A DNA stretch of 64,000 nt from Patescibacteria group bacterium (GTDB taxonomy: Bacteria; Patescibacteriota; Kazan-3B-28), in contig JAWKSK010000003.1 in the NCBI GenBank assembly GCA_041389145.1, positions 128-64,127 on the forward strand, written 5' to 3'. Positions 12,486 through 60,686 of the stretch are shown here, piece by piece (position 1 is the first letter of the stretch; the number at the start of each line of letters is the position of its first letter). The translations under genes were made by a program, and so were the position numbers. The notes beneath the pieces were generated by a model, which ran no database searches, had not been told where the DNA came from, and worked only from the letters and a program-made list of their open reading frames with translations.

Positions 12486-12518
12486 TACTATTAATATAGC
12501 ACAGCTAAGAGATATAAG

Positions 12519-14780: not shown

Positions 14781-14781
14781 G

Positions 14782-15490: not shown

Positions 15491-15523
15491 CATTTGTTGA
15501 TATATGGTAGTTACTGCTACAAA

Positions 15524-16994: not shown

Positions 16995-16999
16995 TTACG

Positions 17000-30306: not shown

Positions 30307-30474
30307 TTAGTAATTGGAATTATGTATAAAAATTAAAATTGATCTAAACGGTTGAGAAGTCGATGTATAACTGATAAGAGTTATGGTTTTATAGCCATGG
30401 TGGCTATGTCCCCCATTCTTGACTCCCCAAAAATCTGTTTAGACCCTTAGGAAAACTGGTTTTTAGCGAAGGTA

Positions 30475-31050
30475 TTAACCTTCTAATATCTCTCTGAGCT
30501 TTTTAAGTGCCCGAGAGGTAATGGCACGAACATTATCTTCCTTCTTGCGAACAATCTGAGCCACCTTAGAGATGGAGTGTCCATCTACAAAGCGTAAACG
30601 GAGAACTTTTTCATATTCAGCTGGCAACTGGGTAAGGGCTTTATCTAGGTCAGTGGCTTCTTGGTAGATTTCATCTCCTTCAAGATCGGCGATTTCTGGA
30701 AGATCATCGAAAGAGATTTCAGTAGTTTTGGTAGCTCGATAGTGATCGATGATGGTGTTGCGAGCTACAGTGTAGAGCCAGGTACTAAATTTAGCGTTTG
30801 CCTGTGGCCGATACTGATGAATGCGTTCCCAAGCTTTTAAGAAAACTTCGGAAGTAATGTCCTCGGCAGTTGGTGCGTCTTTAACCTTGATGTAGATAAA
30901 GCGATAAACTTTAGTGGCCCAAATGTCATAGATTTGACCAAAGGCCTGCTCATCACCTTTTTGAGCATCAATAACTAAATTAGCTTCGACATTGTTAGTG
31001 TCGACTGCCGATTCGCGTTGTAACTGTACATCACCCATGTGGGTGTTCAT
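30475..31050 (-). CDS. ECF-type sigma-70 family RNA polymerase sigma factor
   Basis: Region 2 (FGQIYDIWATKVYRFIY...DITSEVFLKAWE...STWLYTVARNTIIDHYR) and region 4 (LPAEYEKVLRLRFVDGHSISKVAQIV...RALKKLR). Confidence 0.85.
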   Translation of the reverse strand: MNTHMGDVQLQRESAVDTNNVEANLVIDAQKGDEQAFGQIYDIWATKVYRFIYIKVKDAPTAEDITSEVFLKAWERIHQYRPQANAKFSTWLYTVARNTIIDHYRATKTTEISFDDLPEIADLEGDEIYQEATDLDKALTQLPAEYEKVLRLRFVDGHSISKVAQIVRKKEDNVRAITSRALKKLREILEG

Positions 31051-33427: not shown

Positions 33428-34381
33428 TTAGCGTGAGTGTTCTAGTTCTGTTTCATCCTCATCTTTCTCATCATCGTCACTTCCGTGATCGTCATTGAGA
33501 TCTTCGAGGGAATCGTTTCCTGAGTTGTCATCGAGTGGGCGTGGTACCCATTGGTCTTCACGATCTGGGATACCATCCTTATCTCCGTCTCTAAGTTCTG
33601 GGGTCTTAATCCATGGACCATAGAGGTTATCGTCATAGAATTGGTAGTCTAAAGGTTTGTTTGGGTCGACGTGGAATTCGTATCTAATATTTCTACGAAT
33701 CTGATCGCGGATATCATCTTTGAGTTCGAACTTCTTGTCGTTAGAACGATCTTTCAAGATTTCTTCTAATAGTTCAGCTTTTTCGGCTCTGCGATCGATA
33801 ACCTGTTGTAAATTCTTGCTGAGTTTAAGATATGCATCTTTTCTAGCAGAATCGTTGGTAGCGTCATATTTCTCGAGGACTACTTCTTGAACCTGGTTAA
33901 GACGTTCAAGACCAACTGCTGCTCGTTCTTGGGCTAGGTTTCTGAAGTAAAGAATACGTTCCTTGCGTGAGTCATTCCAATCTGAGGTGTCGATAGCTTC
34001 TAGAGCTCTAAATTCTGACACACGTTCTTCTGCTAAGGAGGCGTGGAACTTGGCTCTGGCAGATTCATCACGGAGTAAAGACTTGGTGATGTTTTCGGTG
34101 ACGGTATCAACTGGATAGAGGAGATCACCAGGTTTAGCACTATCTGCCATCACAGCTGTACTGGAGGTGATTACCAATATAGTTGCAAGCGTAACTGGGA
34201 CCCAGTTTAGGGATGGGTTCCAAGAGAGCCCAGATTTAGGGGCACCAAGATCGGCAATTTGACCCAAAACCTGTCCACGAAGAGCGGATTTTACACCATG
34301 TGGAGCATTGTACTCCCCTGCTAAGTGCTTGATTTGGTTTTCCAAATTGGTATGTGAATTATGTTTATTCATGTTGATCAA
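33428..34381 (-). CDS. DUF5667-type single-pass membrane protein with an acidic Ca-binding-like tail (putative anti-sigma partner)
   Basis: TM WVPVTLATILVITSSTAV, a helical domain, a thrombospondin-type-3-like DGDKDGIPDREDQ and a D/E-rich end. Overlaps the sigma gene by 17 nt. Confidence 0.55.
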   Translation of the reverse strand: MINMNKHNSHTNLENQIKHLAGEYNAPHGVKSALRGQVLGQIADLGAPKSGLSWNPSLNWVPVTLATILVITSSTAVMADSAKPGDLLYPVDTVTENITKSLLRDESARAKFHASLAEERVSEFRALEAIDTSDWNDSRKERILYFRNLAQERAAVGLERLNQVQEVVLEKYDATNDSARKDAYLKLSKNLQQVIDRRAEKAELLEEILKDRSNDKKFELKDDIRDQIRRNIRYEFHVDPNKPLDYQFYDDNLYGPWIKTPELRDGDKDGIPDREDQWVPRPLDDNSGNDSLEDLNDDHGSDDDEKDEDETELEHSR

Positions 34382-34901
34382 TGATTTTACGCAAGCGCGT
34401 AAGCCCCCGATTTACTATAACTCTAAGGTTATTTTCTGTTTTACCCATGATTTGAGCAATCTCTGGATAATCCAGCTCTTGAATGTATTTAAGCTGGATA
34501 ACGGTACGGTATGGTTCGGAAAGTTTGAGAATTGCCTCCCGAATTGCCTGATTTTCCAGGCTGGTAGCCGTTTCTGCTTCTATATCCGTAGTATCTGCCT
34601 GATCCATTACAGCAGATAACGGTGCATTTCGCTTTTGACGACGATAATGGTCGATGAGGCGGAAACGGGCGGATCCCAAAATCCAGGCCATAAAGCTACG
34701 GTCTGGGTTGAATCGCTTGAGGTTTTTCCAGGCTTCCAGATAGAGTTGGGAGGTTAAATCTTGGGCATCGGCTGGGTTTTTGACCCGGAAATTGAAGAAC
34801 TTATAGACTGCATCAAAGGTGGCGTCATATAGTTTGCCAAAAGCCTCGGTGTCTCCGGTTTGGGCTTCTCTAGCTAGCTGTTCTAGGTTTTGATCCTTCA
34901 T
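34365..34901 (-). CDS. ECF-type sigma-70 family sigma factor (second copy)
   Basis: FGKLYDATFDAVYKFF...DLTSQLYLEAWK...AWILGSARFRLIDHYRR and LSEPYRTVIQLKYIQELDYPEIAQIMG...RGLTRLR. Confidence 0.85.
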   Translation of the reverse strand: MKDQNLEQLAREAQTGDTEAFGKLYDATFDAVYKFFNFRVKNPADAQDLTSQLYLEAWKNLKRFNPDRSFMAWILGSARFRLIDHYRRQKRNAPLSAVMDQADTTDIEAETATSLENQAIREAILKLSEPYRTVIQLKYIQELDYPEIAQIMGKTENNLRVIVNRGLTRLRKIIDQHE

Positions 34902-43613: not shown

Positions 43614-45527
43614 GTGGTTATACTAAGATTAATGAAGTTAGGAAGATACGGATGGCTATTATGTTTATCATTGATTGCAGTTGTTGCAATTCAGATTCCA
43701 CGACCAACGGTACACGCAGATAGTCCACTAGTAATTATTTCAGAACTAGCATGGGCAGGAAGCAGTCTATCTTCACAGGATGAATGGATTGAACTTAGAA
43801 ATGTTGGTAGCACAGATGTAGATATCAGCAATTGGTCACTTACCAAAGACACTGGTAGTGAAAGTGCTATGGTTACAATTCCACTCGAAACAGTTTTGCC
43901 CTCCGGGGCATTTTTTGTAATTAGCAACTACGATAATGTCGAATCTGTAATAAACATTGAGCCGGATTTGGTCGATAACGCTGTAACTTTATCCAATTCA
44001 AAACTATTGATTCGGCTATATGACGCAGACGGTTTACTGCAAGACACCGCCGGAGATGGGGGAGTTCCACCAGCAGGTAATAATACGAGCAAAAGTTCAA
44101 TGGAACGAGACATAGACCTACTTGGTTGGCACGATGCTGCGATTGCAGTTAACTTAGATCCAGCAGTAAGTGATTTAGCAACTCCAGGAGCAGAGAACAG
44201 TAGCATATCTTTACCACCGACTGTTTCTACCGTAACACCGGTAACAGGTATCGCTGGTGAGCAGTTGGTGATTGAAGAAATTAATGGTGATAATTTCGAT
44301 ATTGATGGAGTCGTAATTAAGCTAGTTCAGAATGAACGTGAATTGGTTGCAAATGATGTATCAATCGCTAGTTCTACCTTGATCGATAATGCGGTATTCG
44401 ATATTGAAATAACTGACACTGGTGTTTGGAGTATAGAAGTTACAAATCCAGACGGTCAGTCTGGATACCTAGGGAGTGCGATCACAATTTCTGAACCAGA
44501 ACCAGAATGGGATTTGAATCCATTAGTAAGGCTGAATGAGCTTTATCCACGACCTGGTACTTCATCGAGTGATGAGTTTATAGAACTTATTAATCTATCA
44601 GATAAAACAGTAATCCTTGATGGATGGGAACTAGATGATGAAGTTGGCAGTGGCTCAGCAAGGTTCAAATTAGATGGTTTTTCATTACCTGCAAGAGGTT
44701 ATTTAACATTCTACAAAACACAATCCAAGATTACTTTGAACGATAGTGGTGATGAGGTTCATTTATTCTTACCAACCGGTGATGAATTAGATATAGTCGT
44801 ATATGAATCCGCACCCAAAGCGCAAAGTTGGGCTAAGAATACAAGCAATTGGGAGTGGACAACAACACCTACTGCAAATGGTAATAATATTTTCACGCAA
44901 CCAGAGATACAGGAATCAGAAATTGACGAAGAAGAGGAAGATTTACAAATTGAGCCTCGGATCAATCTTCTCCCAATCGGTTCAGTGGTAATAACTGAGC
45001 TGTATCCAGATCCCTTGGAGGGAGAGCAGGAATTCATTGAGCTACTGAACATATCTTCAAAGTCAGTTTCACTAGAAGGCGTGTTTATCGAGGATGCAGG
45101 TGGAAAACGGTATAAGTTTATGTCTGGTACGTTAAATCCTGATCAGAGGTTGGTAATTTACAGAGATACCTCAGGAATTGCTCTGAACAATACAGGGGGT
45201 GAGGAAATCAGTCTGTTAAATCCTGATGGTACCGTAATTAGTAAACTAAGTTACCCAGATAAGGCACCTATAAGTGCAGCATTTATCAGACTAGATAACA
45301 ATCAGGGAACATGGGTAAGTGTATCGACACCAGGAACCAAGAATCCTACTGATTTAATTGAAATTGAAAGAGAGGTAGGAGCATGGGTAGATAGTACTCA
45401 GGAAGAAAATTCCTTGCCCGTTACCGGAATACCTGGATTTTCTAGGTTAGGCCTGCTATTTTGGATACTACTCGTTATAATAAGCGGGTACAGTATCCAT
45501 GAAAGAGCAAATCACAAAAATAGTTAG
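43614..45527 (+). CDS. Secreted protein with three lamin-tail-domain (LTD) repeats and an LPXTG sorting signal
   Basis: LTD-like starts are VIISELAWAGS..DEWIELRNVG..ISNWSL, LNELYPRPG..DEFIELINLS..LDGWEL and VITELYPDP..QEFIELLNIS. The C-terminus is LPVTG plus a hydrophobic stretch plus HERANHK. The start is possibly the ATG at 43632. Confidence 0.7.
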   Translation: MVILRLMKLGRYGWLLCLSLIAVVAIQIPRPTVHADSPLVIISELAWAGSSLSSQDEWIELRNVGSTDVDISNWSLTKDTGSESAMVTIPLETVLPSGAFFVISNYDNVESVINIEPDLVDNAVTLSNSKLLIRLYDADGLLQDTAGDGGVPPAGNNTSKSSMERDIDLLGWHDAAIAVNLDPAVSDLATPGAENSSISLPPTVSTVTPVTGIAGEQLVIEEINGDNFDIDGVVIKLVQNERELVANDVSIASSTLIDNAVFDIEITDTGVWSIEVTNPDGQSGYLGSAITISEPEPEWDLNPLVRLNELYPRPGTSSSDEFIELINLSDKTVILDGWELDDEVGSGSARFKLDGFSLPARGYLTFYKTQSKITLNDSGDEVHLFLPTGDELDIVVYESAPKAQSWAKNTSNWEWTTTPTANGNNIFTQPEIQESEIDEEEEDLQIEPRINLLPIGSVVITELYPDPLEGEQEFIELLNISSKSVSLEGVFIEDAGGKRYKFMSGTLNPDQRLVIYRDTSGIALNNTGGEEISLLNPDGTVISKLSYPDKAPISAAFIRLDNNQGTWVSVSTPGTKNPTDLIEIEREVGAWVDSTQEENSLPVTGIPGFSRLGLLFWILLVIISGYSIHERANHKNS

Positions 45528-46952: not shown

Positions 46953-49900
46953 CTATGGTCTTGGTTCGCCACTACCGTAGTTGATGGTCCAATAAGTAAA
47001 GTCGGTGGAGTTTACAAGTCCATCATTAGTGAAGTCTGCCTCGTATGAATTCTTAAACCAAGCTTGGATAATCTTGGATACATCAACAGTGTTTATCGCG
47101 TTATCACGCCAAAGGGTAGGGAGACTATTTAAGATATCTGGGGCGATGTCACCGATTAAGAGACCTTTTTGCTGACCCTTGTGAGTACCGGTGAAGTTAA
47201 CTGGAACTGTACCTGGCGTAGTTGCCACTACTGGCTTGGTACGAGCTAGGTGGTAACGACCCTTAGCCCAGTAGGTGTAGTTAACGTTTGGCTTGAGGTA
47301 GATGGTTGGAAGATCTAAGACATAGTCATCTCCATTGGTGAAGTATGATTCATCGATAACTGGTTGAGCAGTACCGTTTGGTTCACGCAAGAACAAACTG
47401 ACCAAGCGATCATAGGCTTTGGCTTCTAATGGAACAACGGTATCGAGGTTGATTGCAATCAGACTACCAACTGGTTCAAAGAAGGCTTGGGTTTCAAGGG
47501 TAATTCCGTCGACATTCGCGACGAGGTTGGCAATACCCACCGAGTTAGAGCGAAGGAAGAAGCTAGCCTGTCCAAGAGCATTCGTGGTGAGGGTAGGAAG
47601 AGGAGAAATAGTGCCCAACGAGCTGGTAAGGGTAACCTGACGGTTTGGAATACCGATGTTATTTGTATTTCTAACAGTGACCCTAATCACCGAGAAGGCT
47701 TCACCATCAGCTGGAACGTATTTAGGAACTGCAGAGATAGTGGAGAGCTCCTGGCTAATGGTTTGACCAATGGTCTTGCTAACTGGGACTGATACCGGCT
47801 GAAGAGCAACCGGCTTAGCGGTGATTAGAACGTTACCTGTGTAGAAACCAGGAGCAAACTGGGTGGTGATTTCACCATTAGAATTGGTGGTACCAGAAAG
47901 GACGGTGAGGAAGTCACCAGACTGAGTGTAGGCAGCGGTGAAGAAGACTGGCCAGTTTGGAACTGGAGTTGGAACACCCGAACCAATGTAGGTAACAGTG
48001 GCTGTAATGTTTGAACGTTGTGACGAACCTGCTTCAACCGAAGTAGGGGAGGCAACTACATTTACTCGGTACTTTGATGCATCTACTCCAATTGGTATAT
48101 ACAAATCGTTTGAGTAGACCACACCGATTCCTGCAATGGTGGCTTTAGCAACGATCAACGGGAACTGTGGAAGATCCTGTGGCCCCACGTTGTAGGTTGA
48201 GGTGGCAATACCCTGACCACCATTTACTGTGGTCTTGGATGGAGAAACAGTGCCAACACCTGTAAGAATAAATTCGACTGGAGTACCACTGGCAACTGGA
48301 TTTCCTTCCCGATCTACTACTGTTGCGGTAAGGGCGGAACTACCACCAGTGGCGCTTAAACTATCTGGATTACCAATCAATGTAAAGGTATGGCCAGTAT
48401 CAACTTCTTTGACAATCAAGCCAGTATTGGCGACAGGTACACCATCGATGATGACTGTACCCACGATTAACACCTCATCAGATTCATCACCGGCGTCGGT
48501 GGTATAGACAGTAGTTGCGATACCATCAGCATTGGTCTTACGGCCTTTGGATTCTGGGTTGTCAGGATCATCTACTAGCGGATCCAGGGTGCCGTTGTCT
48601 CCTCCCATGAATCCAAAGCGGACCTCGACGTTTGGAAGAGGTGAAATCTGACCCGTAATTTCGTCTAGACGTCCAACAAAGGCGGTAATATTTGACTTTG
48701 CAATTCCGTCACGTGGAATCCGATTAGGAGATGGGATAATGTTTACCACGATGTTGGATGGAGTAGTTACCAGGAAGTCAAAATTACCTGGGAGATTTGC
48801 TACTCGATTCCCAGTAGTTACGGTGACGTTCCAGTAGCCCATTGAAGCAGTGTTTGCGATATCAATGGTAACTTCTAGTTCGTCTGGACTAATGCGGTTC
48901 ACGCTGTCAGCTACGGTGATACCAGTGCCATTACCATCAACATAGGTAAAGGTAACTACCGAGGTTGGTTGGAAGAATGCATCTTCACCGGTTATATGAA
49001 TAACTAGATCATTAGTGTTGCGGTAACCAAACGATGGGTTCACCTGTGTTAAACGAGGACCAGTGATGCTACCGTTAGAAAGAACTTCTAATGGATAATC
49101 AACTACTTCATATTCTTTTTCATTATCAGGAGTACCGTCTGGACTAATCTCAGTGGTGACTCTAAAGATCCAGTTTCCAATTACCGCAGTAGGGGAGGCG
49201 GTAAGGTTTGCAACGGTAAGCTTGAGTGAATCTTCAATGGTGACATTGCCAAAGTTTAAGTCACTTGTATCATCAGTTTGGTTAAGGATTATCTTGCCAC
49301 CCAACTTTACACCGAAGATTTCAGTGGTGACGATAATTTGTGCTGGGCCTGCGGTTTGAGAACGGTTGAACACAGATTGTGCATAACCATTGGAGCTTGC
49401 CTTTGAACCTGGATTAAAGCTTCCAAGATTTGAAGTGAAGTTGAAGGTCAGAGTATCGTCTACCAGAACCCTGTCGGTACCAATAATCTCGTACACAGCA
49501 CCGCGTACTACTGCAGATTCACCTGGGGCCAAGTCAGAAGCTGGGGAAGAAGCAACATAGATCTCGTATGGATGGTCAGAGCTATCCTCTAACATGAACC
49601 AGAGTTCATCAGCAACCGTAGTACCTGTAACTTCTGCCCTTAATTTAACAATGCCTGGAGTTGCACCGGACCGGAAGGTGAAGGTAGCCTCTCCCTGTGC
49701 ATTTGTATTTACGGATGTAGTGCCAGGAGGTGAGAAGGAACCGCTACCGGTAACAATACTCAGATTGATCTGACGGTTTGGATATTGAGGTGCTGAAATT
49801 TGAATCGGTGTTTTGGAAACACTATCCGCCTTGATATGTGGATTATCTACTGACAAGGCAAGACCGGTCCGTGAAGGAGAGATTAATGATACATGGCTAT

Positions 49901-52900
49901 TTCCTTGTTCCCAGTTAGTCTGACCACCGATTGCTTCTACGAGATCGATGGTTTCGCCTTGAAGAATTTGATTTGGGGTTAGAGATTTGATGTAGGCTGC
50001 AAATTCAATGGTTAGGGTTTGCAGAAGTGGGGATGGGTTAGAACTAAGCTCGGCTGCAGTTGGAGCATAGAAAGCACGCAGCGTAGCCAGACCCTTAACA
50101 CTGGACTTGATAGTAAAGGTGGCCTCACCAGCGCTATTAGTAGTTGCCGAGGTAGGTGCGATGATATCAGCACCTTCACGATTAGATTCTATCTTTACGT
50201 GATAGCCAGCGATTGGTGTTCCCAAGTAGTCTTTAAGAGTAACGGTAAGGGTAGCTTGGTCGACACCATCGGCAGCTACTTTATATTTGTCAGTGGTGAG
50301 ACTAGATTGGAGTTGACTAGGAACTCCTGGAACATCCCTAACCTCGACTTGGTCGGTTAATCCAGGAACAAAGAATGAATATCCAGCTTCAGAAATTGCA
50401 CTTCCAATAACATCCATTGGTGATTCAGTAGGGGAGTTGGAGTAGATTCTAAAGCGAGCCTGTCCGTTTACATCAAAGTAGACATATTCATTAGCTTCGT
50501 CTGGGAATTGTGGGGTGTCGTAGACTTCACCAACGCGTTCTACGCGTTCGGTCTTACCTTCGTTGAAGGAATAGTCGGTAGTGACCAGTGGACTGGTAGA
50601 GCGTGAGGTAGTAAGTTTTACTGCATATCGATTACCGTTACTGTCCTGGAATACTGGTTCATCTAAACCATTCTTGATGGTAACGATGACATCGCTACCA
50701 AAGACACCCTCTGGTGAGATAGGGGAGGTAACGACTTCCAAGTTGCCGGTAATATCACCGGAACCAAAGAGCCCAAGGTTTTGAAGACGATTAGATTCCA
50801 CACCACCATAATGGAAGATGGATAGGATAGGGTTTGAAGTACCAGACACCACCATGTAGTCGGCTGCGAATGACTCGGATGAGGAACCATCTGCAAATAA
50901 TGATTCAGGGATAATAATGTCGATACTGTCGGCATAGGTTACCTCACCAAGGTTTGGATCAAGGTAAGTAATTCGGACAGTAATAGCATCTGGATATGAT
51001 CCTGCAAACTGCTTATCTTTGGTGGCTGTAAACTCGAGTTGAGAATTAGACTGAGATCCGATGGATCCAATATTGGAATAGTTGAGAGTCCATTCGTATT
51101 CAACTGCTTGTGAAAAATTGGTGTAGTACTGATCGTATGGTGTAGCTCTGAATACTCGTTTGGCACCTGGAACCACGATTGCGGAATTGGTATTGGCCTC
51201 TGCGCGACTAAGTACGGCATCTGGTTTTGGAGTACCACTTGGATAGACAGCAATGTCAGCAAAGCCACTAATCGTTTTCCCATCTAAGTTACAGTCGGCT
51301 TTAATTCCACGTCCAACCTTACGGTAGAGATCGAGGTTTGGATTGGCTGTGGCAGTTACACTATTGTTTGGATTAACTTCGAGATTGGAAATGATTCCAA
51401 ATGCACCACCGGTCAAGGACCAGGAACAAGTGGCACCGGTTAGTCTCACACCATTAGAGTTGTATGGGTGTGCAGTAAAGATAGTTTGAGATCCGGCTGA
51501 CAATGTTTGAATCCCAGGCGTGACCTTAACGTATGCAAATGAATTATCAACACCTGCAATTCCGAGATCTGACATTGCAAACCAACGTTCTTCAAAGTCG
51601 TCTGTGGTTGGCTTGTACATGAATGTTTTAGGACCAAAGTTGAAGGTATAGTCCGGTACATGTGGATCGTGATCTAGGCTTTGAGGAAGTGGGTTTTGGA
51701 ACTCTTGTTGACCTCCATAAAAGACTGCCTTATCACCAAGTGAATATCCCTGAAGGTTATATGCGGCTGTATAGATGTTTTGATCACCTGGCTCTGAATC
51801 TGCATTCAATGAGTTAATGTAATCGGTGTCCTGGAACCACTCAGAGCTGCGGAAGTTTTGTGATTGAGCAGTGACAGCAACAGGCAGTCTGAAATAAGTA
51901 ACGTTGTTGCCAGTGGCAGTTGTATAGTTGCCTGCATTTTCTAATCCACCAACTACAGCAGGGGAGGACAGCATGTCAGCAAGAGCAAAGAAGGCTTTAC
52001 CACGATTCTGATTTCCAGCTTCATCTTTTAAGGCCCAGCGATCATCTAGCAAGGAACCGGAATAGTTGCCGGTAGCCTGGTTGCCGTTGGTGCCTGACCA
52101 ACGGTTGTTAGATTCGTTCCAGGCATAACTAATGTTGCCAACGAACCTGTATGAAAAATTGGCAACCGTTTGATTTGCCCCGAACTTGAAGCGAAGATTA
52201 GAGCCGGTTGTATGAACTGGGTGCACACCGTCATCAATGACCCAGAAGGTTTTGAATCTTTCTGCAGAACCGTTGGTAACAACTTCCACTTCCTTAAGCC
52301 ATGTAGCACCACCGATTACTGCTAGTTTTCCACCAGCGAAGTTCTTGATAACTTTATGACCATAACGGCCCTGAGGAACCGGAACAACTTCGCCATCAGA
52401 GGTGATCATAAAGCGAAGATGGCCTAGCTTTGCAACTGTGCCAGGAGTCCAACTGGGGGAGAGTTGACCAATGTAGTCTGAGCCTAATTCTGATGCTGTT
52501 GATGCACCTACATTTGATGTGTTGATAATAAAGTGTTCACCAACGGTGGTCACAAAGCGAGCACTAAGAAGGGCCTCGGTTAGCTTGGTGCTGGAGATAG
52601 GACCTCCAACGATAAAGAAGTTCTCATCACTCACATCATTGCGTCCTGAGCCCCCAAGGTCACTAAGACGGATACGAGCCTGACTAGTAGGGGTTAAGTC
52701 TTCAGGTATAGCCCACAAGAAAGAAGTACTACCCTTGGAAACAATACCAGTTCCAGCTCCTGGAAGTGGAACCCAACTGGTGCCACCGTTAGATGAGTAT
52801 TCGAGTTTAAGATCGTTATTGGAATTTGTTTCCCAGGCAATTGTGTGAGTGGTGCCTGCTGACCAGTATTCACCACCGTTAGGGGAGGTTATAGCAAAGT

Positions 52901-54941
52901 TAACACCTTCACCAATAGTAAAGTCATCTGATCTATCCCATCTACCAGTTTGATTTACTGCACATGATTCTGGATTAATGTAATCATTGCCTGTAAGTTC
53001 TTTGGTTTGAATACAAATTCCAATATTTGCCTCATTGGTTAGAGCTTGAGGAGTCAACCAACTGTAGGAACTATCAATTGGTTGATTCTGTTTGATAAGT
53101 TTCCAGTTGAGACCTGGACTTTTCCACCACAATGAAACAAAGTCAAAATCTGATTGATAGTTCCAGCTTATGGTGGTTCGGTTTCCGCCGGGAATTTGGT
53201 CACCGAGTTGAGGAGAGGTGATTTCGACTGAATGATTTTGGATAGCGACTGGATCCGAGACATCGCTTACAACAGAACAATCTGGTTGATATTTACCTTG
53301 ATCATCAAAATAGTGGCCTAAACAAACCCGAATTTGGATATCAGTATTGTTCTGAATTTCAGAAGGAATAGTAAAATCGAAACTTCCATCATTGGTTACA
53401 GATGAGAAATACAGATTCCAATTGGTGGATGAGGTTGGTTTCCACCAAATAGAAGCGTAAGGTTCTGTAGAGTTTGTATCCCAGGTAATTGGGTATGTAC
53501 CCAATCGATACCAGGTGGTATCGGCGACTGGTGAAGTAATAATTAACCCGGTATCAACGATCTCAAATACATCACTTTCATCGGAATAGAATGAATTCCC
53601 ACCATCATTACAGGTAGCAACTGTATTACTACTGCCCATACAGAATCTAAACTTTGCTGCACCAAGCGGATAGCCAATTGGAACGTCAACTTGAAAAGTT
53701 TTAGTACTAGAACTAATTATTGAAAGTGGGAACTCCAATAACTGCCAGTCCTCAGCTTGTCCTGCCTTAGCTTCTGAAATCCAAATTGAACTCCAGGTAT
53801 TATTAGTGATATTTCTGGCGGTTACGGTGACCTGTGCTTTATAGCCTCGAGCAATTTGGTCGCCATTAGTTGGTGATATGATTTGTAGTTTAGTTTCGTC
53901 AATGCCTTGGATGGTAATACCTTGAACACCACCAGCGCCATCGTTTGAGCCTCGTCCGATTGGATCAGAAGTTGTATTGTCACCGTTTCCATCATTGCCA
54001 CCAACGGTCGTACCTCCTCCTGTACCAGTTCCGCCAATGACCGGCTTCTGACTGCTACCGATGCCACCATTTTCCTGTGTATGGTTCAAGAAAAGACCAG
54101 TGCTACCAATAACTGTCTTGTCCTTTACGTTATTCCAGAGAGCAAAATCACCTGAAATATCAATCATGTCAGTGTTGTAGGTTTGAGCGACATCTTCGTT
54201 GATTGGCGGGAATGGGTTGCCGTATACACCTCCAACCACGTGAATGTTTTCACCATCAACAACTACTTCTGGATAGAAGTTAACACCAGACAGAAGTGCA
54301 AATACCTCCCAGCCACTGCCTGGATTGTTCAGATTAAGACGTTCGATAGTGGAGTAGAGGAGAGCGCTCTGATTTTGGTTTTCGACCACCTTAGGGACGT
54401 TAATGTCACCGGACACTACGTAGAGGTACTCACCAACCTGAACGAATCCAAACTCTGCATGACCAAAGTTAGTGGAACCCCAAGCTGTTGCTTCACCTTC
54501 CCAGCTATCTCCAATCACGTTTCCTTTGGAGTCGATTTCTATTCTTCTGACTTTATCTAAAATTGTTTGCTGGTAGCGGTTTTCTGTAACGTTAAAAAGC
54601 AGGTCGATACCACCTGCAACGTATAGCCAGCGCTTTCCCCCCTGATTTACAGATACCATTTTGGAATGAGCTGCTTTTTCTGCACCGTCACGTTCAAGGG
54701 TAGACCAGATTTTCTCAAGATCTGGATCTGGGGCGACACTAGCGCGGCTACCAGATGGGGGATTGAGCAAAGAACCAATCTCGGTAGCAAACAATACGGC
54801 TGCAAATACAGCAATAATAGCCCCTAAACCGATAAGATTCCGTCGCAGGTATCTGCGATCGGCTATTTGGCTAATTATCTGCTCCAGGAAAGTCATTAGT
54901 TTTTTTGATTTGCTTATATTATTGTAGCAAATAATCCTCAA
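46953..54941 (-). CDS. Giant (about 2650 aa) N-terminally anchored multi-domain surface protein (adhesin-like)
   Basis: Uninterrupted 7989-nt ORF with a probable ATG at 54896. TM LIGLGAIIAVFAAVLFA and a beta-propeller-like N-region. Four tandem modules begin I(I/T)SP... with conserved W (e.g. LIITSPVADTTWYRLGTYPITWDT). Also an Asp-box-like SSNGGTSW, many Big_1-like Ig modules (e.g. ADGVDQATLTVTLKDYLGTPIAGYHVKIESN) and a dockerin-like end DFTNDGLVNSTDFTYW. Confidence 0.8.
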   Translation of the reverse strand: MRIICYNNISKSKKLMTFLEQIISQIADRRYLRRNLIGLGAIIAVFAAVLFATEIGSLLNPPSGSRASVAPDPDLEKIWSTLERDGAEKAAHSKMVSVNQGGKRWLYVAGGIDLLFNVTENRYQQTILDKVRRIEIDSKGNVIGDSWEGEATAWGSTNFGHAEFGFVQVGEYLYVVSGDINVPKVVENQNQSALLYSTIERLNLNNPGSGWEVFALLSGVNFYPEVVVDGENIHVVGGVYGNPFPPINEDVAQTYNTDMIDISGDFALWNNVKDKTVIGSTGLFLNHTQENGGIGSSQKPVIGGTGTGGGTTVGGNDGNGDNTTSDPIGRGSNDGAGGVQGITIQGIDETKLQIISPTNGDQIARGYKAQVTVTARNITNNTWSSIWISEAKAGQAEDWQLLEFPLSIISSSTKTFQVDVPIGYPLGAAKFRFCMGSSNTVATCNDGGNSFYSDESDVFEIVDTGLIITSPVADTTWYRLGTYPITWDTNSTEPYASIWWKPTSSTNWNLYFSSVTNDGSFDFTIPSEIQNNTDIQIRVCLGHYFDDQGKYQPDCSVVSDVSDPVAIQNHSVEITSPQLGDQIPGGNRTTISWNYQSDFDFVSLWWKSPGLNWKLIKQNQPIDSSYSWLTPQALTNEANIGICIQTKELTGNDYINPESCAVNQTGRWDRSDDFTIGEGVNFAITSPNGGEYWSAGTTHTIAWETNSNNDLKLEYSSNGGTSWVPLPGAGTGIVSKGSTSFLWAIPEDLTPTSQARIRLSDLGGSGRNDVSDENFFIVGGPISSTKLTEALLSARFVTTVGEHFIINTSNVGASTASELGSDYIGQLSPSWTPGTVAKLGHLRFMITSDGEVVPVPQGRYGHKVIKNFAGGKLAVIGGATWLKEVEVVTNGSAERFKTFWVIDDGVHPVHTTGSNLRFKFGANQTVANFSYRFVGNISYAWNESNNRWSGTNGNQATGNYSGSLLDDRWALKDEAGNQNRGKAFFALADMLSSPAVVGGLENAGNYTTATGNNVTYFRLPVAVTAQSQNFRSSEWFQDTDYINSLNADSEPGDQNIYTAAYNLQGYSLGDKAVFYGGQQEFQNPLPQSLDHDPHVPDYTFNFGPKTFMYKPTTDDFEERWFAMSDLGIAGVDNSFAYVKVTPGIQTLSAGSQTIFTAHPYNSNGVRLTGATCSWSLTGGAFGIISNLEVNPNNSVTATANPNLDLYRKVGRGIKADCNLDGKTISGFADIAVYPSGTPKPDAVLSRAEANTNSAIVVPGAKRVFRATPYDQYYTNFSQAVEYEWTLNYSNIGSIGSQSNSQLEFTATKDKQFAGSYPDAITVRITYLDPNLGEVTYADSIDIIIPESLFADGSSSESFAADYMVVSGTSNPILSIFHYGGVESNRLQNLGLFGSGDITGNLEVVTSPISPEGVFGSDVIVTIKNGLDEPVFQDSNGNRYAVKLTTSRSTSPLVTTDYSFNEGKTERVERVGEVYDTPQFPDEANEYVYFDVNGQARFRIYSNSPTESPMDVIGSAISEAGYSFFVPGLTDQVEVRDVPGVPSQLQSSLTTDKYKVAADGVDQATLTVTLKDYLGTPIAGYHVKIESNREGADIIAPTSATTNSAGEATFTIKSSVKGLATLRAFYAPTAAELSSNPSPLLQTLTIEFAAYIKSLTPNQILQGETIDLVEAIGGQTNWEQGNSHVSLISPSRTGLALSVDNPHIKADSVSKTPIQISAPQYPNRQINLSIVTGSGSFSPPGTTSVNTNAQGEATFTFRSGATPGIVKLRAEVTGTTVADELWFMLEDSSDHPYEIYVASSPASDLAPGESAVVRGAVYEIIGTDRVLVDDTLTFNFTSNLGSFNPGSKASSNGYAQSVFNRSQTAGPAQIIVTTEIFGVKLGGKIILNQTDDTSDLNFGNVTIEDSLKLTVANLTASPTAVIGNWIFRVTTEISPDGTPDNEKEYEVVDYPLEVLSNGSITGPRLTQVNPSFGYRNTNDLVIHITGEDAFFQPTSVVTFTYVDGNGTGITVADSVNRISPDELEVTIDIANTASMGYWNVTVTTGNRVANLPGNFDFLVTTPSNIVVNIIPSPNRIPRDGIAKSNITAFVGRLDEITGQISPLPNVEVRFGFMGGDNGTLDPLVDDPDNPESKGRKTNADGIATTVYTTDAGDESDEVLIVGTVIIDGVPVANTGLIVKEVDTGHTFTLIGNPDSLSATGGSSALTATVVDREGNPVASGTPVEFILTGVGTVSPSKTTVNGGQGIATSTYNVGPQDLPQFPLIVAKATIAGIGVVYSNDLYIPIGVDASKYRVNVVASPTSVEAGSSQRSNITATVTYIGSGVPTPVPNWPVFFTAAYTQSGDFLTVLSGTTNSNGEITTQFAPGFYTGNVLITAKPVALQPVSVPVSKTIGQTISQELSTISAVPKYVPADGEAFSVIRVTVRNTNNIGIPNRQVTLTSSLGTISPLPTLTTNALGQASFFLRSNSVGIANLVANVDGITLETQAFFEPVGSLIAINLDTVVPLEAKAYDRLVSLFLREPNGTAQPVIDESYFTNGDDYVLDLPTIYLKPNVNYTYWAKGRYHLARTKPVVATTPGTVPVNFTGTHKGQQKGLLIGDIAPDILNSLPTLWRDNAINTVDVSKIIQAWFKNSYEADFTNDGLVNSTDFTYWTINYGSGEPRP

Positions 54942-54987
54942 AATGTGAGGATTATTACGCTATTTTTTGGCTAAAAAGTCAAGAGGT

Positions 54988-55995
54988 CTAATTGTCGACG
55001 TTTTGGTCGAGTTCGAGTGGGTAGTAGGTCATGATGGCTTCCTTGATATAGTCTTCATCGGCAACAAGGAAGGTAAGGGGTTGGTCGAACTGGGCCATGA
55101 GGTCGGCTACTAGTTCGGTGGATGGGTGAGCCATTGCCACAGAAATAACACCATCTGGAGAACGATCTACGGCAATAGCTAAATACTGCTGTGCGATTTG
55201 TTTAGGTATAACTCGAACCGTATTACCATCTAGGTCGTAGCGTGAGAGATCGATGCCAGGAATGCGGTACTGGCTAGCAAGAGCTTGGACGATGTCCTGT
55301 CTAGTAATTTTATCTGCCTCTTCGAGAATTTCACCTAGTTTTTTTCCACTACCTGGTTGAAGCTGAAGGGCCTTGATCACATCTTCGTTGGTGATGCGAC
55401 CTTCGGCAACCAATATTTCACCAATGCGATGACTAGGTTTAATAACTCTAACCTTTTGATGTGAATGGTTTGATTCTTGTGGTTGTTGTGAGAGCAGGCT
55501 TTTGTCAGAAATCTTCGAGGCGAGACTTGCGGGGCGGGGGACAGACTGTAATTGAAAGAAGCTTTGTCGACCGGCGGACTGAACATTGATGTTTCCGTAG
55601 TTAAAGATGTTTTGTAGATATCCCTTCATTTCCACTTGAATATCTTGAACCTGGTTAAAACTAAGCTGTGAAAGCCGACGATTAAAAAGTGAGACAAGCG
55701 CAATATCAATAAGCCGATCATGAGTGATAATCCAGGCATCCTGATACCAGAATGTCCATTCGGTCATGAAGAAGCTTATGACAAAAACAATATACAAACC
55801 ACTGAATATCCAGATTGCCAATACACCTGCTGGATCCGAAGTAATTCCGACTGCCTGGAATACAACATACGAAAGCGAAACAGGGAGAAGCATGATTAAG
55901 GACCAAACCGCAGGAAGAAGGAGATCTAGAATATGCCTTCTTACGATAAGTGGTTCGTCATTGTAGGCTTGTTGATTTGGATATTCGTGTGTCAT
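54988..55995 (-). CDS. Membrane bPH_2-domain protein fused to an MshEN/T2SSE_N-type (c-di-GMP-binding) domain
   Basis: Two TM helices plus IITHDRLIDIALVSLFNRRLSQLSFNQVQDIQVEMKG (bPH_2). Then RIGEILVAEGRITNEDVIKALQLQ-PGSGK-KLGEILEEADKITRQDIVQALASQ and the rest of a T2SSE_N fold. The start was moved to the ATG at 55995 (MTHEYP). Confidence 0.7.
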   Translation of the reverse strand: MTHEYPNQQAYNDEPLIVRRHILDLLLPAVWSLIMLLPVSLSYVVFQAVGITSDPAGVLAIWIFSGLYIVFVISFFMTEWTFWYQDAWIITHDRLIDIALVSLFNRRLSQLSFNQVQDIQVEMKGYLQNIFNYGNINVQSAGRQSFFQLQSVPRPASLASKISDKSLLSQQPQESNHSHQKVRVIKPSHRIGEILVAEGRITNEDVIKALQLQPGSGKKLGEILEEADKITRQDIVQALASQYRIPGIDLSRYDLDGNTVRVIPKQIAQQYLAIAVDRSPDGVISVAMAHPSTELVADLMAQFDQPLTFLVADEDYIKEAIMTYYPLELDQNVDN

Positions 55996-56159
55996 GTAGT
56001 TGATAGGAGCTGATTGTATGCAAGGATGCCCCCAATCCAAGATATGGTGATTACTGCAATTACGATGGCAATATATAATCCGATCGCAACGCTAGTTTTA
56101 TCACCTCGAAATCCAATCCTAAATTTAACTAAGTGAAAAATATTGATAATCGTAAGCAT
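55992..56159 (-). CDS. Possible 55-aa small membrane protein, ATGA-coupled to the bPH-MshEN gene
   Basis: MLTIINIFHLVKFRIGFRGDKTSVAIGLYIAIVIAVITISWIGGILAYNQLLSTT. Its stop overlaps the next start. No clear Shine-Dalgarno sequence. Confidence 0.35.
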   Translation of the reverse strand: MLTIINIFHLVKFRIGFRGDKTSVAIGLYIAIVIAVITISWIGGILAYNQLLSTT

Positions 56160-56205
56160 AGGTAGCAATGGCGAGAAAGAAGATAATGTAGATTGAAATA
56201 GATAT

Positions 56206-57213
56206 TCATTTTGTCACTTCTATTTCGAAGTTGAGATGTTGGTATGCCTTTGGGGTAACAGCACGTCCCTGGGCAGTACGTTGAAGAAATCCTTGTTGGA
56301 TTAGGTATGGTTCATATACATCTTCAATGGTTTGAGATTCTTCACCAAGACTGGCAGCAAGTGAGTTAACTCCAACTGGCCCTCCTTTAAATTGCTGGAT
56401 GATGATTGTTAGGATCTTACGATCTAATTCATCAAGTCCTGCATCATCGATGGCCAAACTAGTGAGAGTGTTGGCTACCACTTCACGTGTAATGTTGCCT
56501 TCGTTTTTTACAGTTGCAAAATCACGTACTTGCTTTAAAATTCGGTTTGCAGTGCGTGGAGTAAATCGTGAACTCAGCGAAATTAACTCGGCAGCTGAGT
56601 CGGGTAATTCTACATTGAGAATTGTACTGGCTCGCTGCACAATTTTTTGAATGTCTTGTGCAGAATAATAATCCAAGCGATGAAGCGCACCGAATCGATC
56701 TCGTAGGGGAGAGGAGAGAGAACCTACACGAGTTGTTGCACCAATGAGAGTGAACTTGGGAAGTGATAGTTTAATCGAACGGGCTGACGGACCTTTACCA
56801 ACCATAATATCTAAGAAGAAATCTTCCATGGCAGAGTAGAGCACTTCTTCGATACTACGACCAAGGCGATGAATTTCATCGATAAACAACACATCACCCT
56901 CTTTCAAATTGGTGAGAATTGATGCTAGATCTCCTGGGCGCTCAATAGCAGGACCAGAAGTACTATGGAGGTTCACTCCCATCTCATTGGCGATAATGTG
57001 AGCTAGGGTTGTTTTACCCAGTCCCGGTGGCCCAAACAGTAGAATATGATCCAAGGGTTCTTCACGCATCTTGGCAGCAGAAATAGCAATCCCTAAAGCA
57101 TCCTTAATAGGGTCTTGTCCGATGTATCCATCAAAAGACTTAGGGCGAAGACCAATATCTATGGCTTCATCCCCAGGAATTGCGTTCTGGTCAATAATTC
57201 TATCTGTTTCCAT
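56206..57213 (-). CDS. ruvB: Holliday junction branch migration helicase RuvB
   Basis: [14 protein letters not shown] (Walker A), [10 protein letters not shown] (Walker B), GATTR and LRDRFG. Confidence 0.92.
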
Positions 57214-57709: not shown

Positions 57710-58523
57710 GGAAAATATTTATTCCAATTAATATAGCACCCAGAATGATGCGATAGATTGCGAATGGAATAAGACTATGTGTCTTTAAGAAATCGAGCAT
57801 GAACTTAATTGCAATGTATCCAGAAATAAATGCAGTAGTAAATGCGATCACTAAAACAGTGATATCCATATTGGCTGGGGGAGAGGAGATGACTTGCAAT
57901 AAAGAATAACCACCTGCCATAAGAATAGTTGGAGCACCGATGAGAAATGAGAACTTTGCTGCCTGATCTCTTTTTAATCCCTGATAGATACCGGCCGAGA
58001 TGGTGGCTCCAGAACGTGAGACACCGGGAATTACAGCTGCAGCTTGAGCGATACCAACACTAATAGTGTCCCATATAGTTACCTTGCTGAGATTGCGTTT
58101 TGGTTTAGCAATCTTTTCGATCACGATAAACAAAATACCAACTGCAATTAAGGCAGAGGCGACATAGACGGTCTCGCGAGCGATGCCTTCTGCGATGTCC
58201 TTCATTAATAATGCTCCGAGAATCGCTGGAATGGTGGCAATAAGAATGTATTTAAATAGGAGCTGATGTTCAAAGCTGGCTTTAGTTTTAGATTTAGAAA
58301 CAAGAGCTAAATAAAACTCTTTCCAGTCAGACCAAAAGTAAATGATCACCGCGAAGAGGGTAGCGAAGTGCATGACCATATCAAATTCCAAACCCTGGTC
58401 CGGCCAACCTAGAAGATCGCGACCAATTACTAAATGCCCAGTTGAACTAATGGGCAGGAATTCGGTAAGACCTTGAATCAAACCAAGAATGGCTGCCTGA
58501 ATGTATGATGCGTACATTTCCAT
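57684..58523 (-). CDS. uppP: Undecaprenyl-diphosphate phosphatase
   Basis: GLTEFLPISSTGHL, PGVSRSGATI and FSFLIGAPTI. Confidence 0.9.
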   Translation of the reverse strand: MEMYASYIQAAILGLIQGLTEFLPISSTGHLVIGRDLLGWPDQGLEFDMVMHFATLFAVIIYFWSDWKEFYLALVSKSKTKASFEHQLLFKYILIATIPAILGALLMKDIAEGIARETVYVASALIAVGILFIVIEKIAKPKRNLSKVTIWDTISVGIAQAAAVIPGVSRSGATISAGIYQGLKRDQAAKFSFLIGAPTILMAGGYSLLQVISSPPANMDITVLVIAFTTAFISGYIAIKFMLDFLKTHSLIPFAIYRIILGAILIGINIFHVRLPWLS

Positions 58524-60686
58524 TAGGGAACTACTACATTAATTTTCCATGTAACTACCGGTCCGAACCATGTCACAAACTCTGAAACGAGCCTAAATGA
58601 CTCTTGGTAACTACCGACCTTTTGCGGTGCAGTTATCGTGAAGGTGAGCATGAACTCATTACCTGGGAGAATAGTTAGGAAGGTGTTTGAGACCCGATTA
58701 GAACTTTCCCAACTTGGATTGTAGATTAAGCTAGTACGATCATTGGGGCCAGTAGTACCAAGTTTTACCTGACCATGGTTGAGTTGTCTCCAGTTGCGGC
58801 GACCAACTTGCCGATCCAGTGTTTTTGAATCTGACTGAGACAGTCTTGCTCTCACCGGGTGAGGGTGAGGTCGTCAGACTGACTGACCAACGATGCTCCA
58901 TATGCATTTGGTGACAAAAAATAACAAGTCTGAATCTCCACTGCCAGTAACATTGATTTCCCAATAGATACCCAAGTCATTAAACCAACTTACGTATTCT
59001 GATACAGGACGGAAGTATTCTTTAAACGTTCCTGCAACGTCAGGAGTTTTTACTTTGAATTCAAATCTAAAGTACTTCACCTGATCTAACATAGTTAGAG
59101 CACATCAAACTCATACGGTTGGAAACCCAACCAACTACTGTCTTGAAAATACTTGTTCTGTCTAAATTTTGATCGGTTCCTAATTTAACGTTAGCGGTTG
59201 TTTGGTTTGCCAATGATGTCCCAAGCAACATTACTCTTGCAGTTACATCTACCCAGAGGTTTGGTGGTTTGACCAGGAGCTAAAACAAGGTATGGGCTTT
59301 GTTTAACCCAAGTCATGTTGCAGTTAGTAGTTCTTGGTTGCTGGAAGGTGAGCGAGAAGGTTATTGGTAAATGCTCCAGTGCTCTCTACAACTGCTTTTA
59401 CCCCTCGGAACCATTGAACCAACCTGGAAGGTAACTCTTCCAGTGTTGTCTGTATTACCAACTCCATAGCTGTTTACGAGACGTCGATTGATTAAATTAC
59501 CTTCACCATTAAGTCTGATGGTTACTGGAATATTGGGTTGTGCAACACCACTGCTATCAGCAACTGCGAATCTGCACCAGACTCATCAATCACCTGCAAC
59601 GATTGGTTTTTGACGCGCTAATTACTGCAGACTGTGAAAGCTTTGGTAGCTGAACTAATGCCAATGCATTTGAACCCATAACCAAAGTCGGTGGACGGAC
59701 TGGCTGAGCCGAGGAGTGTTGGTAGTAGTTAGTTTAGCCTCAAGTTGGGGAAGAAATAGATTACTGAGTTATGATGTTAACGAAGATACTGGTGACAATG
59801 GCAGTAAGTAAAGGACGAGCCCGCTCCTTGAGAGTAACCACCATCCAAGTCGGGTACTGCGATTTCTTCACCAGGTGCGGGTGAGGTCTAAACCAACACC
59901 GTAGTTGGTAAAGTAAGACTTTTTCAGAGTCTGACTCAGAGAACCTACGCTTATTACTGAAGAATATGCAGCGGGGAGACCTATCTGAACCAGCATTTCC
60001 TGCTGCGTACAAATAACGGCTACATTATTATTAATAGCGTAATTTATGGCAACCTTAAGATTTGCATCTGGGTATGCAGCACCAAAACTCATATTGATAA
60101 TGCGAGCACCATTATCTACTGCATAGTAGATTGATTTAACTACGTCGCCGTACTCACCACCGCCTGCGTTGTTAAGGCCTTTTACAGGCATAATGATTGC
60201 TTGTTGATTTACTCCAGCAATTCCTTGTCCGTTATTAGAATTAGCAGCGATGAGGCTTGCAATTCCAGTGCCATGACCATGATAGTCTTTAACGTCTGAG
60301 TTCTTTTCAGCAAAGTTATATCCATGATAGTCATCGATATACCCGTTACCATCGTCATCCTTGTTGTTGTTAGGAATCTCGTTGTTGTTGGTCCAGATTC
60401 TGCCAGCAAACTCTGGATGGGTAAGTTCTATTCCAGTATCAATAACCGCAACGATGATATTGCTTCCGGTGGTATAGTCCCAAGCCTGAGGAATCTGCAT
60501 GGTATTTAAATACCATTGCTGATGGAAGTAGGGGTCGCTGGCAATTTGAGTGACCTGGAAATCAGATTGGGTTCTAGAGATTGTGCCTGCGACGCTGAAG
60601 TCGGAGGGGTTGGAACTGGCCTGGACGTGACCGATAGAAGTAGTCACTAAGTACAGGGCCAAGATTAATTTTGAGATTGACCGCAT
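58523..60686 (-). pseudogene. Secreted subtilisin-like S8 peptidase with C-terminal tandem Ig-like (NBR1/FW-type) repeats; frameshifted from about 60010 downstream
   Basis: Signal peptide, then VAVIDTGIELTHPEF (Asp) and HGHGTGIASLIAA (His). AAGNAGS and GSSFTAAIVTS (Ser) are recovered only in other frames. Repeats such as FKNTGSASW...FEFKVKTPDVAGTFKEYFRPVSEYVSWFNDLGIYWEINV and FTITAPQKVGSYQESFRLVSEFVTWFGPVVTWKINV are spread over three frames. Confidence 0.6.

Follow-up and report, generated by a model that had tools for sequence, protein, structure and literature searches.

How does a membrane protein with a predicted receptor domain for cyclic dimeric guanosine monophosphate (c-di-GMP) come to be encoded next to a giant surface protein, and do the two work together? 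This question is raised by a locus of a Patescibacteria group bacterium (GTDB lineage Bacteria; Patescibacteriota; Kazan-3B-28), located in a stretch of 64,000 nucleotides that we call the window (assembly GCA_041389145.1, contig JAWKSK010000003.1, positions 128 to 64,127). The gene under study, at 54988..55995 on the minus strand, encodes a bPH_2 (bacterial pleckstrin homology, PH) membrane module fused to an MshEN domain, and the gene downstream of it encodes the giant surface protein. A first-pass annotation of the window, made from the sequence alone, had proposed the fusion and read the two genes as an adhesin-control module analogous to LapD/LapA. The fusion itself is borne out by Pfam, by NCBIfam and by sequence and fold searches against the PDB.

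Only one c-di-GMP receptor module is more widespread than MshEN, and the bPH_2/YdbS family comprises common but mechanistically enigmatic membrane proteins. We describe here the domains of the fusion protein and its predicted ligand site, and then the genes that accompany it in other Patescibacteria, from which its relation to the giant gene can be judged.

Architecture of the bPH_2-MshEN fusion protein

The fusion gene starts with an ATG and encodes 335 residues, covered by Pfam and NCBIfam matches. The TTG at 56040 is an extension made by the program that listed the open reading frames (ORFs); the ATG is the start in every homolog and overlaps the stop codon of a mini-ORF upstream, and was retained for both reasons. 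An exact-sequence lookup of the protein matched no record, and a word-indexed search returned 22 full-length homologs (P0001-P0022), with identities of 36-96% in the family alignment and without exception from Patescibacteria or 'Kazan' metagenome-assembled genomes (MAGs). Compared with the 96%-identical copy at locus L044, the proportion of nonsynonymous differences (pN) is 0.037 and that of synonymous differences (pS) is 0.75, a saturated value, which indicates that the gene is under purifying selection.

The protein begins with a two-helix transmembrane (TM) hairpin (residues ~22-85; 55741..55932, minus strand as for all domains below). Kyte-Doolittle hydropathy gives two hydrophobic peaks centred at ~residues 30-43 and 63-70, and an AlphaFold model places the helices at 22-49 and 55-85, with a confidence (pLDDT) of ~79-87 in 10-residue blocks over residues 21-80. 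The loop between the helices, of ~10 residues, is the only extracytoplasmic part of the protein. The hairpin is followed by a bacterial PH domain of the bPH_2/YdbS type (residues 88-160; 55516..55734), which Pfam PF03703 matches with 25.0 bits, a marginal score given the gathering score of 22; relatives score 21-48 bits, and the match is precomputed for 15 of the 22 homologs. A sequence-profile search against the PDB gave no bPH match and the fold search alone found it: Foldseek aligned the middle part of the model with the bacterial PH domains 3DCX and 3HSA (rmsd 2.8-3.1 Å over ~86 residues, E=3e-4), in a region of low model confidence (pLDDT ~50-65).

The remainder of the protein is occupied by MshEN. 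Its first part, MshEN_N (residues 190-242; 55270..55428), is the tandem 24+5+24-residue c-di-GMP motif recognised by NF053729, and its second part, MshEN_C (residues 243-328; 55012..55269), is a T2SSE_N1-like alpha/beta subdomain matched by Pfam PF05157 with 42.1 bits against a gathering score of 23.1. Both Pfam domains named in the first-pass annotation are thus found above their gathering scores. With phmmer, the C-terminal half matches the N-termini of PilB, PilF and MshE with E-values down to 6.6e-19. Moreover, the best Foldseek match of the AlphaFold model is 5HTL, the structure of MshE with c-di-GMP (E=1e-9), c-di-GMP-bound GSPII-B domains of PilF are also among the top matches, and the pLDDT across the MshEN_C region is ~65-85.

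No ATPase domain accompanies this MshEN: Pfam finds no PF00437 match in the protein, which ends 7 residues past MshEN_C, and the PF00437-bearing matches in the homolog search are longer proteins that align to 31-42% of the query only. A glycosyltransferase domain is likewise missing from the protein, and the model of the glycosyltransferase NfrB (NF008411) aligns by its MshEN part only. Pfam, AlphaFold and hydropathy therefore agree with the first-pass annotation in placing an MshEN domain, without ATPase, behind two TM helices and a PH domain. Its remark that MshEN is normally the N-terminus of ATPases needs widening, as non-ATPase partners have already been described, among them glycosyltransferase, REC, HD-GYP and CheA.

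The tandem motif and its predicted ligand

Residues 190-242 read RIGEILVAEGRITNEDVIKALQLQ-PGSGK-KLGEILEEADKITRQDIVQALASQ and are encoded exactly by 55270-55428, where the motif had been placed by the first-pass annotation. The NCBIfam model NF053729 ('c-di-GMP_motif') scores 51.6 bits over these residues against a cutoff of 38 (E=5.8e-14), and two half-motifs, residues 190-213 and 219-242, with 5 spacer residues between them form a 53-residue unit. The match is far beyond chance. As for the consensus written earlier, of the form RLGxxLL...Q, its 24+5+24 spacing holds but its letters do not hold throughout: among the 12 key R/L/G/L/L/Q positions (RIGVLQ + KLGILQ) eight are identical and four are conservative replacements. 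Neither the strict nor the relaxed regular expression of Wang et al. 2016 literally matches the window motif, with positions 7, 10 and 11 responsible, and given this mismatch the motif was judged by curated hidden Markov models and per-position tables. The deviations of the window protein are I2, R11 and V17 in motif I, and K1, E7, D10 and K11 in motif II.

The family as a whole keeps the ligand-contacting positions. Its consensus is RLG..L..L..Q in both half-motifs, G3, L6, L21 and Q24 are invariant or near-invariant in both, and both ribose/phosphate-contacting Gln residues as well as the LG...L...L core are kept in 21 of the 22 members; in P0043 and P0054 the motifs are canonical. In the crystal structure of MshE the motif Gln residues touch the ligand only (PMC5013675), and the conservation of such residues argues for retained ligand binding. 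Furthermore, NF053729 is matched at E <= 0.01 by 23/23 diverse members, down to 25-35% identity, and a profile of the 22-member family matches the c-di-GMP binder MshE (5HTL) in the PDB with 86.6 bits (E=1.4e-23) and the non-binder XpsE with 17.9 bits only (E=0.011). As judged from these profiles, the MshEN of the window protein is a complete and conserved predicted c-di-GMP receptor domain.

The explanation that we favour, and to which we give about an even chance, is that the fusion protein, anchored in the membrane and facing the cytoplasm, serves as a c-di-GMP receptor whose MshEN domain regulates a YdbS-type bPH module working with the two-TM mini-protein encoded by the mini-ORF upstream. 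Of its elements, the architecture, its conservation, the purifying selection, the coupling of the genes and their context are seen in the data; the ligand binding, the conformational control and the output we infer. The protein would be a YdbS-type module, made of two TM helices and bPH_2, with a complete MshEN added at its C-terminus; binding of the dinucleotide to the four-helix MshEN_N bundle would change the conformation or the oligomeric state of the cytoplasmic bPH/MshEN_C assembly, and this change would in turn act as the switch for a small membrane complex in which the mini-protein takes part. bPH domains form rings. By analogy with the DdE/DdF proteins, and in view of the neighbouring genes (S8 peptidase, UppP/BacA, a small export protein and surface proteins), the output probably relates to the envelope or to export.

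Several observations weigh against this explanation. The leading Arg is variable across the family (R in 11/22 for motif I and 12/22 for motif II), and the first Arg of each half-motif matters in Vibrio cholerae MshE. The turn Gly at position 10 is present in 17/22 members in motif I and in 12/22 in motif II; the window protein has G in motif I and D in motif II, where E also occupies a core hydrophobic position. The mean pLDDT of the AlphaFold model, 66.9, denotes moderate quality only, and the presumed partner mini-ORF is frameshifted in the window genome. We know of no established output function of bPH_2 modules. In addition, Pfam searches of all ORFs >=100 aa in the 64-kb window found no GGDEF, EAL, HD-GYP or PilZ domain, the only HD domain being that of RNase Y, and Rfam found tRNAs only, with no c-di-GMP-I or c-di-GMP-II riboswitch. 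Nor did ~15 sampled neighbourhoods contain a c-di-GMP synthase, hydrolase, PilZ or riboswitch (the enzymes being looked for in precomputed Pfam lists); this check covered the window and ~10 kb on either side of the matches, a small part of each genome. Ultra-small groundwater MAGs have been found to encode diguanylate cyclases (PMC9938205), so c-di-GMP is not implausible in Patescibacteria; almost nothing specific was found in the literature on c-di-GMP in the candidate phyla radiation (CPR), Kazan or Saccharibacteria.

The altered residues and the missing enzymes also speak for another reading, which we consider rather unlikely: MshEN would be a degenerate, nucleotide-blind module for protein interaction or dimerisation, like the N-domain of XpsE/GspE, and the protein a YdbS-type protein with a docking domain, in bacteria that do not make c-di-GMP. 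Besides the variable leading Arg, the changed turn Gly and core hydrophobic positions of the window protein and the lack of c-di-GMP genes seen locally, this reading draws on the proteins P0042 and P0060, which keep MshEN_C and have lost MshEN_N, and on P0019, in which MshEN_C stays next to a degenerate tandem motif. MshEN_C-type N1 domains are indeed known protein-binding modules, as in the EpsE-EpsL complex. On the other side, the ligand-only-contacting Gln and the Leu triads are near-invariant down to 25-35% identity, NF053729 scores above its cutoff, and the family profile is far nearer to the binders than to XpsE. A receptor that still binds its nucleotide thus remains our preferred explanation.

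Conserved partners and the giant surface-protein gene

The full architecture forms 22 clusters at 90% identity and, in an exhaustive profile search, ~12 clusters at 50% identity; it is carried by 11 species-representative genomes. Near-complete genomes with the fusion include METB01000001.1 (700 kb, Kazan), JAQUNP010000001.1 and JGI Ga0453684_0000041 (690 kb), and the bPH-only orthologs at L021 and L026 are on CAYGIK010000001.1 and JAQTYI010000001.1. The same exhaustive search found many stand-alone proteins of ~190 aa that match the TM and bPH half alone, with 130-238 bits. The fusion is a member of an orthologous group that is ancient in Patescibacteria and whose genes stand in the string ruvB, two-TM mini-protein, bPH protein, and the MshEN is a lineage-restricted regulatory appendage: other orthologs are without MshEN, carry MshEN_C alone, or carry a cyclic nucleotide monophosphate (cNMP)-binding domain. 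The last case is P0214, a JGI metagenome protein of 596 aa with an N-terminal cNMP-binding domain and bPH_2 domains; here the bPH membrane module has been joined, in parallel, to another kind of cyclic-nucleotide sensor. The window also encodes, at 10118-10705 on the plus strand, a second TM-hairpin and bPH protein, stand-alone, of 195 aa and with a weak bPH_3 match; it is 23% identical to the N-terminal half of the fusion, so that the genome holds two paralogous bPH membrane proteins.

Directly upstream of the fusion gene lie the mini-ORF (55992..56209, minus strand), disrupted in the window and delimited by comparison with L044 and L045, and ruvB (56206..57213, minus strand; RuvB_N, AAA_lid_4 and RuvB_C), which overlaps the mini-ORF start. 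At L044 the mini-ORF is intact and encodes 71 aa, and it shares 4 nt with the ruvB stop at one end and 4 nt with the fusion start at the other; at L044 and L045, whose fusion proteins are 96% and 80% identical to that of the window, each of the three genes, ruvB, the ~70-aa mini-ORF and the fusion gene, runs into the next with a 4-nt overlap (ATGA). These overlaps imply that the fusion gene is co-transcribed and translationally coupled with the mini-ORF and ruvB, as far as gene arrangement can predict it. The mini-protein, 64-75 aa long in relatives, is a conserved hairpin of two TM helices and bears the motif Y..IN.(F/Y)H..(R/K)F(R/K)..GD. No lineage examined lacks its gene upstream of bPH(-MshEN), whether MshEN is present or not; this survey comprised the Kazan-type loci, the fusions at L041, L042, L043, L046 and L048, and the bPH-only genes at L021, L022, L026, L049, L051, L050, L052 and L070. 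The order ruvB, mini-ORF, bPH is kept in Kazan-type, Portnoybacteria and other Patescibacteria loci. We considered ruvB as a necessary functional partner and rejected it, since L041 and L042 keep the mini-ORF, the fusion and the giant gene without ruvB. At L026 (Portnoybacteria) two small ORFs (9110-9643, plus strand) stand between ruvB and the mini-ORF/bPH pair; by eye they resemble a toxin-antitoxin pair, with an RHH antitoxin-like and a RelE/ParE-like member.

Compared with L044 and L045, the mini-ORF of the window has lost 2 nt at one point and gained 4 nt at another, and a 58-aa ORF starting with TTG remains at 55992-56168. A second gene of the block is damaged too: the S8 subtilase gene (58523-60686, minus strand) is split over at least two frames, with residues ~271-383 unmatched (~720-750 aa in relatives), and is either a pseudogene or a local assembly problem. 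The two frameshifts may be real or may be assembly errors; the intact 8-kb ORF of the giant gene argues against pervasive indel errors.

These partners also bear on the possibility that the protein is an accessory of type IV pili or type II secretion, a membrane-tethered copy of the PilB/GspE N-domain that would compete for or recruit the partners of the ATPase (PilM, PilC or GspL-like proteins being candidates) or buffer c-di-GMP for PilB. The C-terminal half is closest to PilB N-termini and has a TIGR02538 region match, type IV pili are widespread in Patescibacteria, and a PilB-like ATPase without the tandem motif is encoded 7 kb away at L048. Against this, neither the window nor the surroundings of the fusion at any locus examined contain pilus or secretion genes, and conservation of the gene order extends to the mini-ORF and ruvB rather than to any pil gene. 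We hold it to be very improbable. The L048 ATPase (18188-19816, plus strand; PilB/GspE-like, 542 aa) starts, by eye, at the N1-type subdomain, and the bPH protein of the same locus carries a canonical MshEN motif.

The giant gene lies downstream on the same strand, at 46953..54896, and its product was characterised by Pfam, by N-terminal alignment of orthologs and by hydropathy. It has a short basic cytoplasmic tail, one N-terminal TM anchor (a single hydrophobic segment, ~residues 26-37), a Kelch-like propeller, and Big_1 and Invasin_D3 repeats, four of each according to Pfam. The alignment of orthologs, which are 1650-3095 aa long in Kazan-type loci, sets its start at the ATG at 54896 (MTFLEQ); the TTG at 54941 chosen by the ORF caller falls within an inverted repeat. 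The protein therefore has 2647 aa and not the 2662 aa of the first-pass annotation, and the gap between the fusion and the giant gene is 91 nt and not 46, the two genes being codirectional as stated there.

This 91-nt gap (54897..54987, minus strand) is a conserved putative regulatory region, as seen by comparison with L044, L045 and the orthologous gaps. It contains, on the minus strand, the -35 element TTGACT (54977-54982), an 11-bp perfect inverted repeat, AATAATCCTCA-N5-TGAGGATTATT (54930-54956), with two compensatory pair changes in L045, and, after the repeat, an extended -10-like element, TGCTACAAT (54921-54929). The region is near-identical in the window, L044 and L045 despite saturated synonymous sites; in these three the -35 is kept and the -10 is weaker. 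The orthologous gaps of 13/15 loci contain TTGACW-N17-TATAAT, the other Kazan loci having this plain version, and in a scan of both strands for TTGACW-N16-18-TAYAAT the gap promoter is the only exact match in 8/9 loci of ~20 kb, L010 having none. The palindrome at 54930-54956 looks like an operator or an RNA hairpin specific to the subclade of the window, L044 and L045. Given the conserved promoter and the operator-like palindrome in the gap, the giant gene is predicted to be transcribed from a promoter of its own and to be regulated separately and specifically. An operon of the fusion and the giant gene was rejected, as the conserved promoter sits between them.

The fusion does lie near surface-protein genes in other genomes: in all Kazan-type genomes examined it is upstream of an orthologous giant Kelch/Big_1 gene, adjacent or one gene away. 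The Kazan-type order is S8 peptidase, BacA, (Sm_multidrug_ex), (ruvB), mini-ORF, fusion, giant gene, ..., tsaB/tsaE/LTD, and, apart from the lack of ruvB and the presence of one extra gene, it holds even at L041 and L042 (~30% identity). The whole block of ~20 kb, housekeeping genes included, is collinear across these genomes, so that synteny does not single out the giant gene. In other Patescibacteria the backbone is ruvC, galT, ruvA, ruvB, mini-ORF, bPH(±MshEN), an LTD (lamin-tail domain) surface protein of 560-866 aa, tsaE, tsaB. It is seen with the fusion at L046 and L048, where the downstream gene encodes an LTD protein of 751-866 aa, and without MshEN at L049 and L026, and none of these four loci contains the giant gene. 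Orthologs with bPH only fill the same slot at L049, L026 and L022, and also at L021, where the giant gene is next downstream; at L043 the fusion is followed by divergently oriented glycosyltransferase genes and no giant gene is found. Synteny thus tracks an ancient ruvB...tsaEB backbone, in which the position after the bPH gene is filled by the giant gene in the Kazan clade. MshEN and the giant gene are separable in their occurrence, since L046, L048 and L043 have the fusion without the giant gene and L021 has the giant gene next to a bPH-only ortholog. The loci are phylogenetically non-independent, which limits the weight of such counts.

These data allow the adhesin-control module of the first-pass annotation to be weighed. 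In that reading the fusion would be a c-di-GMP switch dedicated to the adjacent giant adhesin, controlling its retention, release or export as in LapD/LapA. It gains from the giant ortholog never lying more than one gene downstream in Kazan-type loci, including the distant ones without ruvB, from the mini-protein, the fusion and the giant protein all being membrane-anchored with cytoplasmic N-termini, and from the S8 peptidase with Ig-like domains in the same conserved block; in Omnitrophota, moreover, genes of the c-di-GMP receptor PilZ adjoin giant genes (bioRxiv 10.1101/2023.11.21.568195). It loses more from the strong promoter of the giant gene, which is neither overlapped by nor coupled to the fusion gene, from the fusion loci without a giant gene and the bPH-only ortholog beside one, and from the collinearity of the whole block, which makes adjacency unspecific. 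The protein also has no extracytoplasmic domain, there is no LapG-type protease and no type I secretion system (T1SS), and the window keeps an intact giant ORF alongside a broken S8 gene and a broken mini-ORF. The proposal is thus weakly supported, and we consider such a dedicated switch quite unlikely.

A functional link between the fusion and the giant protein is possible in other forms, such as a TM-TM contact with the N-terminal anchor of the latter. A broader scheme, speculative and in our view improbable, would have a c-di-GMP-gated, YdbS-like membrane complex of mini-protein and bPH-MshEN control the insertion, export or turnover of downstream surface proteins in episymbiotic Patescibacteria, namely the giant Kelch/Big_1 proteins in Kazan-type lineages and LTD proteins elsewhere. 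If true, it would link a second messenger, self-made or even host-derived, to host attachment; the CPR would have its first surface-display system under second-messenger control, and a function would be found for the enigmatic bPH_2 family.

Other features of the window were recorded. An LTD surface protein of 637 aa (43614-45527, plus strand) ends with LPVTG, a hydrophobic stretch and a basic tail, by eye a sortase-type sorting signal. At 29284-31050 and 33428-34901 (minus strand) lie two ECF-type sigma-70 genes, each with a gene for a DUF5667-containing putative anti-sigma or membrane protein after it. The 8 kb at ~11300-19300 contain no ORF >125 aa; with a Bac_transf (bacterial sugar transferase) fragment at 13184-13507, membrane-protein-like fragments, and adjoining GT9 and O-antigen-ligase genes, this region may be a decayed polysaccharide cluster. 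At its edge (11297-11368, plus strand) lies a low-scoring tRNA match, with 36.6 bits against 57.8-79 for the other five tRNAs.

Comparison with known systems

The MshEN part has its closest counterparts in V. cholerae MshE and in PilB/PilF (5HTL, 8PDK; PMC5013675), with which it shares the 24+5+24 motif followed by a T2SSE_N1-like subdomain, matched in fold and in sequence, and the ligand-contacting LG/L/L/Q positions, which are kept in the fusion family. The fusion differs from these ATPases in lacking the T2SSE ATPase domain, and its MshEN is C-terminal and tethered to the membrane via bPH_2. Moreover, its leading Arg is variable, and motif II is off consensus at positions 1, 7, 10 and 11.

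The resemblance to LapD/LapG/LapA is confined to the general idea of a membrane c-di-GMP receptor whose gene has that of a very large surface protein nearby. The two use unrelated receptor domains, with no GGDEF/EAL match in the fusion and, in LapD, the degenerate EAL of a GGDEF-EAL module; the fusion has no periplasmic output domain, and no LapG-type protease, T1SS or retention module accompanies it. The fusion and giant genes are also predicted to be separate transcription units, and their adjacency is not specific to the fusion. With the anatomy of the fusion, inside-out capture of a protease in the LapD style is not possible, because only ~10 residues are extracytoplasmic.

The membrane half resembles YdbS-YdbT of Bacillus subtilis and DdE-DdF of Enterococcus faecalis, in having two TM helices, one cytoplasmic PHb2 domain and an adjoining gene for a membrane partner. 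The E. faecalis proteins (YdbS/YdbT-like) are required for leaderless bacteriocin export (PMC8657885). The fusion differs by its additional nucleotide-sensor domain, by a partner that is a ~70-aa two-TM protein rather than the six-TM YdbT, and by the absence of a bacteriocin locus.

The earlier statement that no bPH-MshEN system has been described agrees with the searchable literature: the combination is not in the supplement text of Wang et al., and no searchable paper mentions MshEN together with pleckstrin or bacterial PH. We regard it as a new domain combination of a known kind of receptor; automated annotation already labels the two domains separately. The conserved MshEN fusion and the parallel cNMP-binding fusion together suggest that bPH_2 membrane modules are effector units under cyclic-nucleotide control, which would give an experimental handle on bPH_2 function. 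It would also imply that some ultra-small Patescibacteria, with their minimal signalling repertoires, still read c-di-GMP at the membrane, and they would do so from a gene block rich in envelope and surface-protein genes likely to matter for host attachment.

The nearest functional precedent for the fusion is NfrB of Escherichia coli, a glycosyltransferase of the membrane that c-di-GMP activates and whose MshEN is C-terminal (PMC8669469). The NfrB model NF008411 aligns to residues 176-331 of the fusion with E=1.4e-12. nfrB loci are often linked to diguanylate cyclases, whereas no linked diguanylate cyclase gene was seen at the fusion loci, and the effector is a GT2 domain in NfrB, in contrast to the bPH_2/YdbS hairpin and PH domain of the fusion. 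Both proteins share the same layout, in which an N-terminal membrane effector module is joined to a C-terminal MshEN sensor.

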